Source: a cyanobacterium endosymbiont of Epithemia turgida isolate EtSB Lake Yunoko (lineage in GTDB: Bacteria; Cyanobacteriota; Cyanobacteriia; Cyanobacteriales; Microcystaceae). From it: DNA of 32,000 nucleotides. Position 1 is the stretch's first letter, and each line of letters starts with the position of its first letter. Under the pieces are notes generated by a model. That model worked only from the letters and a program-made list of their open reading frames with translations, had not been told where the DNA came from and searched no databases. The stretch is taken from NCBI RefSeq assembly GCF_000829235.1, contig NZ_AP012549.1:2310001-2342000 (forward strand), read 5' to 3'. Positions 24,559 through 28,599 of this stretch are shown here, piece after piece. Made by a program: the position numbers and the translations under genes.

Positions 24559-24790
24559 ATGTATAGGTTGATATATCAGCTACTCCAGTCGAGTTCCTTT
24601 TCTCTGCATCCTTAAGCTAAAAATATGACAGGTTCAGAAAGATAGATCGTAACCGATAGGAAACTGATAGGATAAGTCACTCTCCTATTCCTGTGTCAGG
24701 CATCAATGCAATGAGATTATTCCCCGACAGGAAAATAGTTCATAGCTAGATAATTGATTTACTTTGTACCGTTGTTTAGTTTCGCGATCA
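24559..24790 (+). pseudogene. Heavily eroded second ccmK-like remnant (ccmK2 position)
   Basis: Frame-hopping translation gives MYRLIYQLLQSSSFSLHP*AKNMTGSER*IVTDRKLIG*..., ...PVSGINAMRL... and ...FIAR*LIYFVP. Against the CcmK consensus ([88 protein letters not shown]), residues F, A..M....R, (K)IG, VS.GI.N..R, IAR and L.Y..P recur at roughly conserved spacing. By-eye evidence only. Confidence 0.35.
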
Positions 24791-24804
24791 CAAGGAAATC
24801 CAGT

Positions 24805-25105
24805 ATGCCAATTGCCGTTGGAATGATTGAAATAAAAGGGTTTCCTACCGTTGTAGAAGCGGCGGATGCTATAATGGACAAAGCTGCCCGTGTCACCGTT
24901 ATTGTTACGAGGCGATGTATCTGAAGTATAAGTTTCAGTATCCGCAGGAATTGAAAATGCCGGCCGCGTCAATTGTGGACAAGGTTTCTCAACCCATATT
25001 ATTGCCCGTCTACACGACAACCTAGAATACTTATTATTCATTCCTTATACCAAAGCCGTAGAACAATTGTGCGAAAGTATCAATCTTCCTTTAAGAGGAG
25101 TATGA
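24805..25105 (+). pseudogene. ccmK: Carboxysome shell protein CcmK pseudogene (CcmK1-like, with C-terminal extension)
   Basis: MPIAVGMIEIKGFPTVVEAADAIMDKAARVT|VIV. About 13 codons (LVGYEKIGSGRVT) are missing at ~24897. After a +1 shift near 24906-24910 it reads [64 protein letters not shown], with TAA at 24929-24931. The tracked minus-strand ORF 24703-25041 is antisense to this. Confidence 0.85.
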
Positions 25106-25128
25106 ACGACAACTAGTAGTTAATCATA

Positions 25129-25391
25129 ATGTAAATTGCTGAAGTTAAAGATACCGTCGTCAGAACTGTAGTTTAACAAGACTTAAGCTCCTATTAGTAC
25201 AGTTTATGGATGTTCAAGGTTAATATTAAATAGCAGGAGACATTGTGTATGCAAGGCTTAAGAAATGAGTCTTAGTATCAAGAGAAAGTGCTGCTTCTGC
25301 CGAAATATCTAAACCTTTACAGGAAACTAAATTAGAAATAAATAGGTTTTCTACTAATCATAATGACTTGATTTCTTTACCTTCAATATAA
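25129..25391 (+). pseudogene. ccmL: Carboxysome vertex protein CcmL pseudogene
   Basis: M*IAEVKDTVVRT (TAA at 25132-25134), compared with the MQIAKVRGTVVST-type N-terminus. After a frameshift it reads RLKLLLVQFMDVQG*Y*IAGDIVYARLKK*VLVSRESAASAEISKPLQ, compared with LRGVKLLLLQFVDEEG...EWVLVSRGSAARQ. Confidence 0.7.
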
Positions 25392-25397
25392 ACAAAA

Positions 25398-25625
25398 TTG
25401 GTGGTTAATCGCCCTATTGACAATGACTCTATTTCTAATAGCAATAATTTTTCTCATCATCTGCAAACGACTAAAGAGAAAGAAACTGATTTTTTAGTGG
25501 AAGACATAGAATATATTTTGTTAGAAAAGACAACCACAATTGAAGAGAATACCGAAATTATGAAACAAACTAACCCCAATCCAGCTTCACCAGTAGAGAA
25601 ACCCAATTCTCCTATTATCGGATAA
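25398..25625 (+). pseudogene. Possible 5' stub of ccmM fused to unrelated or eroded sequence
   Basis: It starts 6 nt after the ccmL remnant as (TTG)VVNRPIDNDSISNSNNFSHH. This loosely recalls a CcmM N-terminus (MVVR....NID....H.FSN). The remaining 50 aa are unrecognisable. Mostly a positional argument. Confidence 0.25.
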
Positions 25626-26297
25626 ATTTATATCAACAAGCTTTTATGTACTTTGTTCCCTGAAAGTCAAGCTTTTAATCGTTATCAATAATATAAATTG
25701 TTATGAGTATTAATGAGTAATTAGCCACAATATTGGTTTTTTTGCCGGAAGTAATGAGATTAAATAGTAGATAATTATATGATTTATTTTTTTTAGTATG
25801 ATTGATAATCATCTCTTTTATAAAAAATTTGGTTTTGTTAGTCACTCATTTTCTTTGAATAAACTTCTTATCTCTAAGTTCTTTAACCTGTCTTCTCTGA
25901 CTAAGTTAGTCTTATAGAGACTTTATTTTTTATTTTTTCACTGTTAAAGGAACAACTTGATGAGCAAGAATCTTTAAATATACTAAATAAATTCTAAATT
26001 TTTGAAAAAATGTAGAAAAAAAAATAAAAAGCTGTCACTTAAAATGCATTAATTACCTCAATTATTCTGTCTATACATCGTAATCAAAAAATTATGAATA
26101 AGCAATAAATAAAGCACAACTATCTATGATATGATTGGGGCTTGAAGAACGAATAAGCAAAATAACGGTGAGCTAAATACCACTTCTAGCGACTGAATAA
26201 CTTCTTAAAATATTTTCTCTATTGCGGGTAGGTTCAGACTTAACTTTTATACAGATCAATGAGAAATTAATCATACCATTCATGGAGGAATTATTAT

Positions 26298-27722
26298 ATG
26301 GTACAAGCCCAATTTAATCAGAGTTTAAGGCTGGTGTTCAGGACTATCATCTGACCTATTACACCCTCGACATATACCCCAAAAAACACTGATCTACTTG
26401 CGTGTTTCCGTATGACACCCCAACCTGGAGGTCTTTCTGAAGAAGCAAGTGCGGCAGTTGTGACAGAATCCTCTGGCGGAACCTGGACAACAGTTTGAAC
26501 AGTTAATTTAACTGACTTAGATCCTTATAAAGGTCGTTGTTATGACATCGAAGCTATTCCTAACAAGGATAATCAATATTTTTACTTTATTGCCTATTCT
26601 TTAGATTTATTTGAAGAAGGATATGTTACTAACGTTCATACCTCTCTAGTAGGTAATGTATTTGGATTTAAAGCACTGCGAGCACTACTTTTAGAAGATA
26701 TTCGGTTTTCTGTTGTCTTAATTAAAACCTTCCAAGGACCTCCTTATGAAATTACGGTTGAACGGGACAAATTAAACAAGTATGATCGTCCTTTATTAAG
26801 ATGTACTATTAAGCCGAAACTCGGTCTGTCTGCTAACAATTAACTATGGACGCGCTGTTTATGAATGTTTACTCGGTGGCTTAGACTGTACTAAAGATGA
26901 CAAAAATATTAACTCTCAACCCTTCATGCGCTGGTGTGATCGCTTCCTCTTCGTCCGAGACACACAAAAGCACAAGTGGAAACTAATGAGGTTAAAGGTC
27001 ATTATCTTAACGTTACTGCTGGTACTTTTGAAGAAATGCTCAAGCGAGCAGAATTTACCAAAGAAATTGGTACTCCCATCATCATGCATGACTTCATAAC
27101 CGGGATCTCTACAGCAAACACCACCTTGGTGAGGTATTGTCGTGGTAATGGATTATTACTGTAGATTCACCGTACAATGCACGCAGTAATTGATCATCAG
27201 AAAAACTATGGTATTGATTTCCACGTTCTAGCTAAGTGTTTACTTCTATATGCCGATGATAACCTTCATTCTGGAACCGTTGTTGGCAAATTAGAAGGGA
27301 AACTAGGCATAATCACTATGGGTTTTGTTGACCTGATGTGTGAAGACTATATTAAAGAAGACCGTACTTGTGGTATATTCTTCACCTAAGACTATGCATC
27401 TATACCTGGAATCATGCCTGTTGCTTCTGGTGGTATCCATGTATGGCATATACCCGCCTTAGTAGAAATTTTTGGAGATAATTCTTGTTTTCAGTTTGGT
27501 GGTGGTACTTTAGGATATTCTTGGGGCAATGCACCCAGTGTAATCGCTGACCGTGTAGCTCTCGAAGCTTCTATTCAAGCCCGTGATGAAAGCTGGTTTG
27601 TGTCTGGTGAAGCCGAAAACCAAGTTATCCATAAAGCTTGTAAGTGGAGTCCTCAATTAGCTACCGCTTGCAAATTATGGAAAAAAGTCAAGTTCGAATT
27701 TGAGGTAATGGACACACTCTAA
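26298..27722 (+). pseudogene. rbcL: RuBisCO large subunit pseudogene, near full length
   Basis: A GGAGGA RBS precedes the ATG at 26298. Segments read [56 protein letters not shown] (TGA at 26496-26498), ...[13 protein letters not shown] then a shift, [31 protein letters not shown] then a shift, and [26 protein letters not shown]...[29 protein letters not shown]...[54 protein letters not shown]...[10 protein letters not shown]. The last segment has TAG at 27162-27164 and TAA at 27387-27389. At least 4 frameshifts and 3 nonsense codons. Confidence 0.97.
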
Positions 27723-27818
27723 TTTAGAGATAGTTTTTAATTTCTTCAAAATTAAAAGTATTTATGTAAAAATACTCACAACTGATAATCATATCCTGAT
27801 TTGGATAAGGAGTAATCT

Positions 27819-28208
27819 ATGAAATATAAATAGCCAAAGAAACGGTTTAATTTTGACAAAAATACCTAACTCACTAAACAGTTTGTCCTATTCATTATCA
27901 ATCAGTTATCCGAAACTAAACCAACTCAGGTTCTTTAGCTGACTCAATATAAGTCATCCCATAATATAAAAAAGGGAGAAGTATATTTAGAGGAGTTAAT
28001 AGCTCAAAATAAAGAATTAGTATTGCCGATTATGTCAATACTATGGCATCTGCTAAAAATGGCACTGGAATTTTTACCAAAGATGGTAATGGATGGAATT
28101 AGTCAGGCAAATATGAAACACCATCGTCAGTTATGAACACAACTGATTCAGTTCCAAGCAGTAATTGATAACCATAATCCAGAAATCTCTGAGTTTGAAG
28201 ATAGATGA
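27819..28208 (+). pseudogene. rbcX: RuBisCO assembly chaperone RbcX pseudogene
   Basis: MKYK then a shift to IAKETV*F*QKYLTH*, then FVLFIINQLSETKPTQVL*LTQYKSSHNIKKGEVYLEELIAQNKELVLPIMSILWHLLKMALEFLPKMVMDGISQANMKHHRQL*TQL. This parallels the RbcX pattern ...QAVRVI.DQLSETNP..A.WL..Y......GE.YLE.L...NKELVLRIM.VRE....V.EFLPEMV...I.Q.N..HRR. Located between rbcL and rbcS as expected. Confidence 0.8.
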
Positions 28209-28253
28209 CTCAAATAATCCTTAAAATAGTTAATTGAACAAAATAGATAAACC

Positions 28254-28599
28254 ATGAAAACTTTACCTAAAGAGCGTCGTTACGAAACCTTTTTTTACCT
28301 ACCTCCATTAACTGATCAACAAATTACCAAGCAAATTGAGAATATGTTAGATCAAGGGTTTATTGCTGGAGTTGAGTTTGAATAAAATCCTGATCCTAGA
28401 ACCTATTTATGGACAATGTGGAAGTTGTCTTTGTTTAGCTTTATTTAGTGCTTCTTACGCCGAGGAAGTGTGAGCAGAAGTCCGTAAATGTAGTTCTGAG
28501 TATCCCAATTCCTATATTCTTATGATTGCTTTTGACAATATCAAATAATGTTAAATCATAAGCCTTATTGTTCATAAGCCCAACACTCATGGATATTAA
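28254..28599 (+). pseudogene. rbcS: RuBisCO small subunit pseudogene
   Basis: [60 protein letters not shown], with TAA at 28383-28385. After a frameshift it reads SYAEEV*AEVRKCSSEYPNSYILMIAFDNIK*C*IISLIVHKPNTHGY*. Confidence 0.9.

Follow-up and report, generated by a model that had tools for sequence, protein, structure and literature searches.

Remnants of a carboxysome–RuBisCO gene supercluster in the spheroid-body genome of Epithemia turgida, compared among related endosymbionts

The loss of RuBisCO from the cyanobacterial spheroid body (diazoplast) of the diatom Epithemia turgida was published with its genome (Nakayama et al., 2014, as restated in PMC5638926). In that genome rbcL and rbcS are pseudogenes and the Calvin cycle is incomplete, and the situation in the Rhopalodia gibberula endosymbiont is essentially the same (Nakayama and Inagaki, 2017, PMC5638926). 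The supplement to the latter paper places ETSB_1619–1623 between ETSB_1618 (ndhF) and ETSB_1624 (a permease), and lists a RuBisCO-like open reading frame (ORF) and a ccm-protein ORF of R. gibberula as 'absent from E. turgida SB'. More generally, orthologues of 12 carboxysome and eight carbon-fixation proteins are missing from every rhopalodian endosymbiont (PMC12903740). Here we analyse a stretch of 32,000 nucleotides of this genome (positions 2,310,001 to 2,342,000 of NZ_AP012549.1, forward strand; hereafter the window), in which the remnants of a carboxysome (ccm) and RuBisCO (rbc) gene cluster lie between an intact ndhF and an intact ABC-2 family permease gene. As far as the 2014 description is restated in the later paper, the rbcL and rbcS pseudogenes reported there are this same locus in this same genome, with no biological difference.

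The nitroplast UCYN-A (Candidatus Atelocyanobacterium thalassa) resembles the spheroid body in being a related, N2-fixing endosymbiont that does not fix CO2, and the NdhF homologue of UCYN-A4 (L070) is 63% identical to the NdhF of the window. We take it that UCYN-A lost its RuBisCO and carboxysome genes outright and kept few pseudogenes. The counts given are 57 pseudogenes in UCYN-A and >150 in diazoplasts (PMC12377750). Compared with UCYN-A, the spheroid body stands at an earlier stage, at which the wreckage is still legible.

For comparison, loci were gathered by a scan for NdhF in species-representative genomes and through homologues of the permease. The other spheroid bodies are those of R. 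gibberula (AP018341; L002), R. sterrenbergii (CP192514; L082), E. pelagica (uoEpiScrs1; L084) and E. adnata (CP076462; L086); relatives with intact genes are GCA_002110465.1 (L083), ctg3475l of ENA ERZ25042306 (L085), L010, L011, L012 and part of L006. In the intact arrangement ndhD and ndhF lie on one strand, and ccmK2, ccmK1, ccmL, ccmM, ccmN, rbcL, rbcX, rbcS and the ABC-2 permease gene follow one another on the other strand. The superclusters of free-living cyanobacteria (L083, Pleurocapsales LEGE 06147, Lusitaniella and loci 1597–1604 of Rippkaea orientalis PCC 8801) share this order and the divergent ndhF with the window, but all eight of their genes are open and conserved, whereas in the window every gene is broken or missing.

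That these endosymbionts have lost carbon-fixation genes is textbook knowledge and no discovery of ours; both the loss of RuBisCO from this genome and the loss of carboxysome and carbon-fixation genes from the group are already known. What we have worked out here is the ccmK2/ccmK1 chimera, the ccmL-to-ccmN deletion, the lesions in rbcX and a lesion-by-lesion comparison among the endosymbionts. Their value lies in providing a time series of gene death, with the same eight-gene cluster caught at five stages of decay in five endosymbionts and intact in close relatives. The order and timing of loss thereby become testable, with rbcX as the candidate for the earliest loss, shell genes and RuBisCO apparently going later and in parallel, and the adjacent subunits of a CO2-uptake-type NDH-1 being kept. 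Such a series is relevant to the way in which a photosynthetic bacterium becomes a nitrogen-fixing organelle.

The broken cluster between ndhF and the ABC-2 permease gene

The window is part of the E. turgida spheroid-body genome. Its NdhF (631 amino acids) and its ABC-2 permease (262 amino acids) match BAP18342.1 and BAP18344.1 exactly, and both of these proteins belong to the cyanobacterium endosymbiont of E. turgida, on a contig of 2,794,318 bp. The locus is collinear with those of the R. gibberula, R. sterrenbergii, E. adnata and E. pelagica endosymbionts at 81–91% nucleotide identity. It is also AT-rich, with a GC fraction of 0.21–0.46 per kb, and of low coding density: ORFs of at least 150 amino acids cover ~55% of the window, and open large genes alternate with stretches that contain short ORFs only. 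An earlier interpretation made from the letters of the DNA (the sequence-only reading) had proposed a cyanobacterium turned heterotrophic endosymbiont, of the kind found as spheroid bodies in rhopalodiacean diatoms, and the exact protein matches and the collinearity with four other spheroid-body genomes bear this out.

Judged from its gene order, homology and lesions, the region between the two intact genes is almost certainly a non-functional relic of a β-cyanobacterial ccmK2-ccmK1-ccmL-ccmM-ccmN-rbcL-rbcX-rbcS supercluster that has been decaying in place. The longest ORF anywhere in 23969–28837 has at most 112 amino acids, and the short ORFs of this interval match Pfam BMC, RuBisCO_large (in three consecutive pieces), RbcX and RuBisCO_small. 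When the proteins of intact relatives were used as tblastn queries, scores were 647 bits for RbcL, 145 for RbcX, 111 and 85 for RbcS, 82 for CcmK, 48 for CcmL and 101 for CcmN, far above chance and in the order of the relatives' genes, so that the window retains the ancestral arrangement and its remnants show the syntenic homology of pseudogenes. Six remnants can be recognized, namely a ccmK2/ccmK1 chimera, ccmL, the 3′ half of ccmN, rbcL, rbcX and rbcS. Lesions were catalogued by frameshift-aware protein-to-DNA alignment, codon tables and nucleotide alignments, and each of the six carries at least two that disable its frame. The sequence-only reading had counted seven broken units; its broken carboxysome and RuBisCO series in ancestral order stands, as does the statement that stops, frameshifts or deletions break every unit, but the remnants are six and some of its labels were wrong.

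A β-carboxysome operon would comprise all five of ccmK2, ccmK1, ccmL, ccmM and ccmN, and the window has the chimeric ccmK, codons 1–66 of ccmL and codons 120–251 of ccmN only. Likewise, there is no form IB RuBisCO operon with open frames for the large and small subunits. The remnants are predicted to give rise to no working RuBisCO or carboxysome product, as the sequence-only reading had also held, every gene of the cluster being broken or gone. Scans of the region with Rfam models and for tRNA genes gave no match.

The left boundary of this graveyard is ndhF (22073–23968, minus strand), which is divergent to the dead ccm cluster. The gene is intact, with matches to Pfam Proton_antipo_N/M, and its product scores 913 bits against NCBIfam TIGR01960 (ndhF3_CO2; cut-off 589), placing it in the NdhF3/CO2-uptake family. 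Beyond it on the same strand are an intact ndhD-type gene (20524–22029; 501 amino acids) and an intact nadB, encoding L-aspartate oxidase (17599–19287; 562 amino acids), so that the open state earlier ascribed to the flanking housekeeping genes is confirmed for all three. The right boundary is the ABC-2 family permease gene (28838–29626, plus strand; Pfam ABC2_membrane_6), which is also found 3′ of rbcS in L083, L085 and L010. The interval between ndhF and the permease gene measures 4,869 bp in the window, compared with 7,856 bp in L083 and 7,624 bp in L085.

Between ndhF and the first remnant lies an intergenic spacer (23969–24804) with no detectable gene remnant. Its 836 bp compare with 821 bp in L083 and 814 bp in L085, and blastn aligns it contiguously to both. 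The sequence-only reading had let the cluster start at 24559 with a first ccmK-like unit (24559–24804), a segment that falls within this ancestral spacer. A second ccmK upstream of 24805 was considered and rejected, as four CcmK references aligned to 23969–24804 scored 23–30, compared with shuffle means of 27–28.

The ccmK pseudogene (24805–25102, plus strand), identified by tblastn, alignment and diagnostic sites, with a Pfam BMC match on the ORF at 24754–24924, combines the 5′ end of ccmK2 with the remainder of ccmK1. In the nucleotide alignment, sites that distinguish the two paralogues read 22222|111111... along the window. The K2–K1 repeat period is 372 nt, and an unequal crossover between the paralogues would therefore stay in frame. 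The chimera carries three lesions: an in-frame deletion of 39 nt, which is specific to E. turgida and not present in E. adnata, a +1 frameshift at ~24908 (codon 47) and a Gln54-to-TAA change at 24929.

Immediately downstream, the ccmL pseudogene (25129–25304, plus strand; aligned to CcmL of L006, L011 and L083 and read directly) ends after codon 66. Its second codon, right after the ATG, has changed from Gln to TAA (25132), and this is followed by a 3-codon deletion, a −1 frameshift at ~25168, a 4-codon deletion and further stops at 25221, at codon 41 and at 25266. A junction at ~25296–25304 fuses ccmL codon 66 to ccmN codon 120. At this point ~2.6 kb has been lost, and with it the whole of ccmM and the 5′ portion of ccmN; the same junction is present in the E. 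adnata endosymbiont. What follows is the 3′ remnant of ccmN (25296–25688, plus strand), matched by residues 120–251 of the 258-residue CcmN of L083 (tblastn, 101 bits) and confirmed by alignment. It keeps the conserved C-terminal peptide, with its ...IYINKLLCTLFPESQAFNRYQ tail, has stops at codons 151 and 230 (25623), and contains an ORF of 75 amino acids (25398–25625). The 'possible ccmM stub' of the sequence-only reading corresponds to this C-terminal half of ccmN. No ccmM remnant was detected in the window by tblastn (E ≤ 1), CcmM queries matching only rbcS, weakly, through their small-subunit-like repeats.

An AT-rich spacer (25689–26297), alignable with L082 and L085, separates ccmN from rbcL; it is 609 bp long, compared with 583 bp in L083 (6947–7529) and 676 bp in L085 (6808–7483). 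The rbcL pseudogene (26298–27722, plus strand) is full length with respect to the 473 reference codons and was delimited by alignment and by Pfam RuBisCO_large matches on its three ORF pieces. It has four frameshifts (codons 7, 26, 182 and 222), a 3-nt insertion (27312) and four stops: Trp67 to TGA (26496), a TAA within a 4-nt insertion (26841), His289 to TAG (27162) and Gln363 to TAA (27387). After frame correction, 353 of 469 residues are identical to RbcL of L011. Alignment 'almost residue for residue', as the remnants had been described, holds for colinearity but not for identity, which is ~75% between this RbcL and a free-living homologue compared with 98% between the intact RbcL of L083 and L085.

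The rbcX pseudogene (27830–28221, plus strand) was traced in alignments that include one of seven genomes at the nucleotide level, with a Pfam RbcX match on the ORF at 28023–28136. Its 5′ part is damaged by a 4-nt deletion and by frameshifts at codons 12 and 15; stops occur as TAA at ancestral codon 21, as TAG for Trp40 (27936) and as TGA for Leu106 (28134), and a +1 frameshift lies at codon 128 (28201). In the rbcS pseudogene (28254–28599, plus strand; alignments, and Pfam RuBisCO_small on the ORF at 28254–28385) there are four stops, Glu44 to TAA (28383), Leu70 to TGA (28471), Gln95 to TAA (28546) and Gln97 to TAA (28552), together with an insertion and one +1 frameshift at codons 62–64 (28440–28447).

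Neutral decay and rival explanations

The dead genes now evolve neutrally, while the neighbouring genes are under purifying selection. Between E. turgida and E. adnata the ratio of nonsynonymous to synonymous substitution rates (dN/dS) is 1.2 for rbcL and 1.8 for ccmK, with small counts for the short genes, and for rbcX it is 0.95–1.2 between clades; values close to 1 are those of pseudogenes. For ccmN the same species pair gives dN 0.017 and dS 0.054, from few changes. By comparison, dN/dS is 0.02 for rbcL between the intact loci L085 and L083, and 0.10–0.15 for ndhF among spheroid bodies. Polarized changes in the dead genes show that, per site, G/C-to-A/T substitutions outnumber those in the opposite direction ~3.5-fold, an AT bias that fits the low GC content of the window. 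The supplement of a paper on the R. gibba transcriptome has nothing on these genes.

Could the lesions be errors of sequencing, base-calling or assembly in genes that are really intact? They are numerous, and the region is low in GC, a setting in which certain platforms are prone to indel errors, but we found nothing else in favour of this idea and regard its probability as negligible. An independent Logan assembly, of SRR29904087, is 100% identical to positions 12073–32000 of the window, a length of 19,928 bp. The same broken ORFs were obtained from a second run, SRR29904083. The E. adnata endosymbiont, sequenced independently from another host species, has nearly all of the stops, frameshifts and deletions in common, including the ccmL–ccmN deletion. 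The identical contig and the shared lesions together exclude sequencing or assembly error, which the sequence-only reading had named as a way in which it could fail, and the clean flanking genes of 500–630 codons and the dN/dS of 1.2 for rbcL argue in the same direction. It is just as hard to credit that the genes are still expressed by means of an altered genetic code, programmed frameshifting or readthrough of stops. TGA does encode Trp in some reduced endosymbionts, and two of the stops here are indeed Trp-to-TGA changes (rbcL codon 67 and ccmL codon 54). However, all three stop codons are found, and at Gln, Glu, His and Leu positions as well as at Trp, so that no change of code and no readthrough could rescue the genes. 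Recoding would also have to overcome about ten frameshifts, kilobase deletions and the disappearance of ccmM, in a region whose neighbours translate normally with table 11 and where amino acids change at the neutral rate.

A different suggestion is that the window represents a nuclear insertion of endosymbiont DNA (NUDT), as in E. clementina, decaying in the host nucleus. Such insertions do exist and decay in Epithemia, but those reported are mosaics of 1.7–6.4 kb made up of distant fragments (PMC12377750), whereas the window is 32 kb long and collinear with complete endosymbiont chromosomes; in addition, it carries many intact genes under purifying selection, and its proteins are found exactly in the deposited endosymbiont genome. 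We consider a nuclear origin extremely improbable. Retention of one or more fragments for a new role, be it the 102-residue RbcL C-terminal ORF, the 75-residue ccmN ORF or a regulatory transcript acting on the divergent ndhF-ndhD operon, also appears very unlikely. In its favour, gene calling in independent assemblies picks out ORFs of 62, 70, 102 and 75 amino acids, of which two are also found in E. adnata, and the spacer between ndhF and ccmK still has its ancestral length. Against this stand the E. turgida/E. adnata comparisons given above for rbcL (dN/dS 1.2) and for ccmN, where changes are few, and the outright deletion of the same regions in the R. gibberula and E. pelagica endosymbionts; moreover, the 75-residue ORF has no fitting Pfam or NCBIfam family, and there is no Rfam match.

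We favour decay in place of a supercluster no longer needed. Under this explanation the host would supply fixed carbon, and selection on the CO2-fixation genes would lapse. The decay itself is seen directly in the sequence comparisons: the genes are being erased where they stand, through point mutation biased towards AT, through small indels and through a small number of larger deletions. The larger events are the unequal fusion of ccmK2 and ccmK1 and the deletion of ~2.6 kb from ccmL through ccmM into ccmN, and about 3 kb of the ancestral 7.6–7.9 kb is gone overall. Erosion is ongoing and largely lineage-specific, and the neighbours ndhF, ndhD, nadB and the ABC-2 permease gene stay under purifying selection. 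Two points weigh against this account. The relaxation of selection through host-supplied carbon is a step that we infer from established knowledge. Also, the absence of a second, intact rbcLS/ccm set elsewhere in the genome, which would qualify the predicted loss of function and which the sequence-only reading had named as another way in which it could fail, is taken from the cited papers (PMC5638926, PMC12903740), in which no such copy is reported.

Decay in the other spheroid bodies and the timing of loss

The spheroid bodies of R. gibberula, R. sterrenbergii, E. adnata and E. pelagica all carry the dead cluster at the position that it has in the window, between the same neighbours. Its deletions differ from lineage to lineage. 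In R. gibberula, unlike in the window, codon 153 of ccmM is fused to codon 262 of rbcL. R. sterrenbergii differs from the window in keeping ccmM remnants, and its rbcL is full length. In E. pelagica only ~2.5 kb of the cluster is left.

The rbcL and rbcS stops and frameshifts of E. turgida and E. adnata are all absent from the Rhopalodia and E. pelagica lineages, and R. gibberula has no rbcL lesion in common with its sister R. sterrenbergii. The sole rbcL stop found in different lineages is Gln219 to TAA, in R. sterrenbergii and E. pelagica, where the E. turgida codon is CGA; CAA to TAA is a mutation-prone change, and this stop may therefore have arisen in parallel. In ccmK, the alignments place a frameshift at codon 47 in R. 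sterrenbergii as well. With the majority of lesions confined to the E. turgida/E. adnata lineage, the recent loss proposed in the sequence-only reading is a reasonable view.

Lesions common to all five spheroid bodies occur in rbcX only: codon 21 is TAA, with further substitutions next to it, and codon 5 is also TAA in those genomes that preserve it. The Trp40 stop in the same gene was considered as a further ancestral lesion and rejected as homoplasy, as it is TAG in three endosymbionts and TGA in L085, and R. sterrenbergii has TGG; the dependable common lesion is the codon-21 TAA with its neighbouring changes.

All four freshwater spheroid bodies have a single chimeric ccmK2/ccmK1 (24805–25102 in the window, 12692–13018 in L002rc, 4488–4725 in L082 and 5895–6231 in L086), in place of the tandem pair of the relatives. 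In R. gibberula the crossover lies at a different point from that in its sister R. sterrenbergii and in E. turgida/E. adnata. This difference implies at least two independent fusions, through repeated unequal recombination of the tandem paralogues.

The rbcL gene may have remained under selection for part of the time since the lineages parted. Neutral simulations (n = 300) were started from the rbcL inferred for the crown node, with the empirical mutation spectrum, and compared with the pair E. turgida and R. sterrenbergii. With a spectrum drawn from ~107 changes, an alignment method that favours amino-acid similarity and a comparison that includes no likelihood codon model, the NG86 omega of rbcL was 0.52 compared with a neutral value of 0.85 (0.63–1.09), and the parsimony ratio of nonsynonymous to synonymous changes was 2.8 compared with 4.3 (3.2–5.8); in neither case was any of the 300 simulations as low. 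The two lineages have three and four in-frame rbcL stops, where 6.3 per lineage are expected under neutrality, and nonsynonymous changes in rbcL reach only ~75% of the neutral expectation. These values suggest that rbcL was under constraint for about a quarter to 40% of the time since the lineages split.

A tentative history, for which we put the balance slightly short of even, can be proposed from these comparisons. RuBisCO and both ccmK genes would have been intact, and rbcL under selection, when the spheroid bodies diverged, and the CO2-fixation genes would have been lost repeatedly and in parallel, long after endosymbiosis had begun, with rbcX going first. Parallel loss is proposed because no rbcL or rbcS lesion is common to E. 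turgida/E. adnata and the other lineages, because the sisters R. gibberula and R. sterrenbergii differ in all of their rbcL lesions and in their ccmK crossovers, and because rbcL omega and the nonsynonymous share fall under the neutral expectation and the L085 cluster, apart from rbcX, is intact.

The L085 locus (positions 2377–10000 of ctg3475l, 3,097,436 bp; also present as L088, Logan SRR28397344, and L089, SRR28397362) comes from a close relative of the spheroid bodies. Its NdhF is 85–91% identical to spheroid-body NdhFs, and 3′ of the permease gene it has the gene order of the spheroid-body type, with ORF-free gaps of 1.3–1.6 kb. Its ccmK2, ccmK1, ccmL, ccmM, ccmN, rbcL and rbcS are intact and strongly conserved, RbcL and RbcS being 98% identical to those of free-living L083. 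Its rbcX is a heavily broken pseudogene, with the start codon changed from ATG to ATC, five stops and three frameshifts, and these lesions are unlike those of the spheroid bodies. In a neighbour-joining tree of NdhF and the ABC-2 permease, which bears on the position of L085, including that relative to the E. pelagica endosymbiont, monophyly of the endosymbionts had a bootstrap value of 28%.

Neighbouring genes in the window

All five spheroid bodies have intact copies of the NdhF3/CO2-uptake family ndhF and its partner ndhD (20524–23968, minus strand, in the window), which adjoin the dead carboxysome genes. An NDH-1 module of the CO2-uptake type is thus kept without RuBisCO or carboxysomes. 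A remnant of chpX/cupA was sought in the gap between nadB and ndhD (19288–20523), and tblastn found no match in the window, in the other endosymbionts or in close relatives. Since the gene is missing from this place in close relatives too, there is no reason to expect that it was ever present at the locus. The gap itself is 1.2 kb long and has no long ORF, and its 81-residue ORF has no Pfam match. In the R. gibberula endosymbiont ~1.4 kb of extra DNA is found here (window 20165/20221 compared with L002rc 6692–8119).

Another degraded gene may be present further to the left. A fragment of cobS, for cobalamin-5-phosphate synthase (15275–15902, minus strand), contains an ORF of 101 amino acids that corresponds to positions 83–151 of the 207 in Pfam CobS, and a second short ORF upstream of it has no family match; the fragment is probably a further pseudogene. 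It is consistent with the report that vitamin B12 synthesis has been lost in the E. turgida endosymbiont and not in that of R. gibberula (PMC5638926).

The window also has an intact cytochrome c oxidase operon (COX2, COX1, COX3), together with ilvD, an ArsA-type ATPase gene and a PBP2-type transpeptidase gene, in the stretches 7642–11106 (minus strand), 2310–3995 (plus), 5215–6390 (plus) and 11838–13670 (minus). Respiration, amino-acid synthesis and peptidoglycan genes have thus been kept here while CO2 fixation was lost. Several further gaps, very AT-rich and poor in ORFs, for example 1137–2309, 4000–5214, 6391–7641 and 15903–17134, may contain still more degraded genes.

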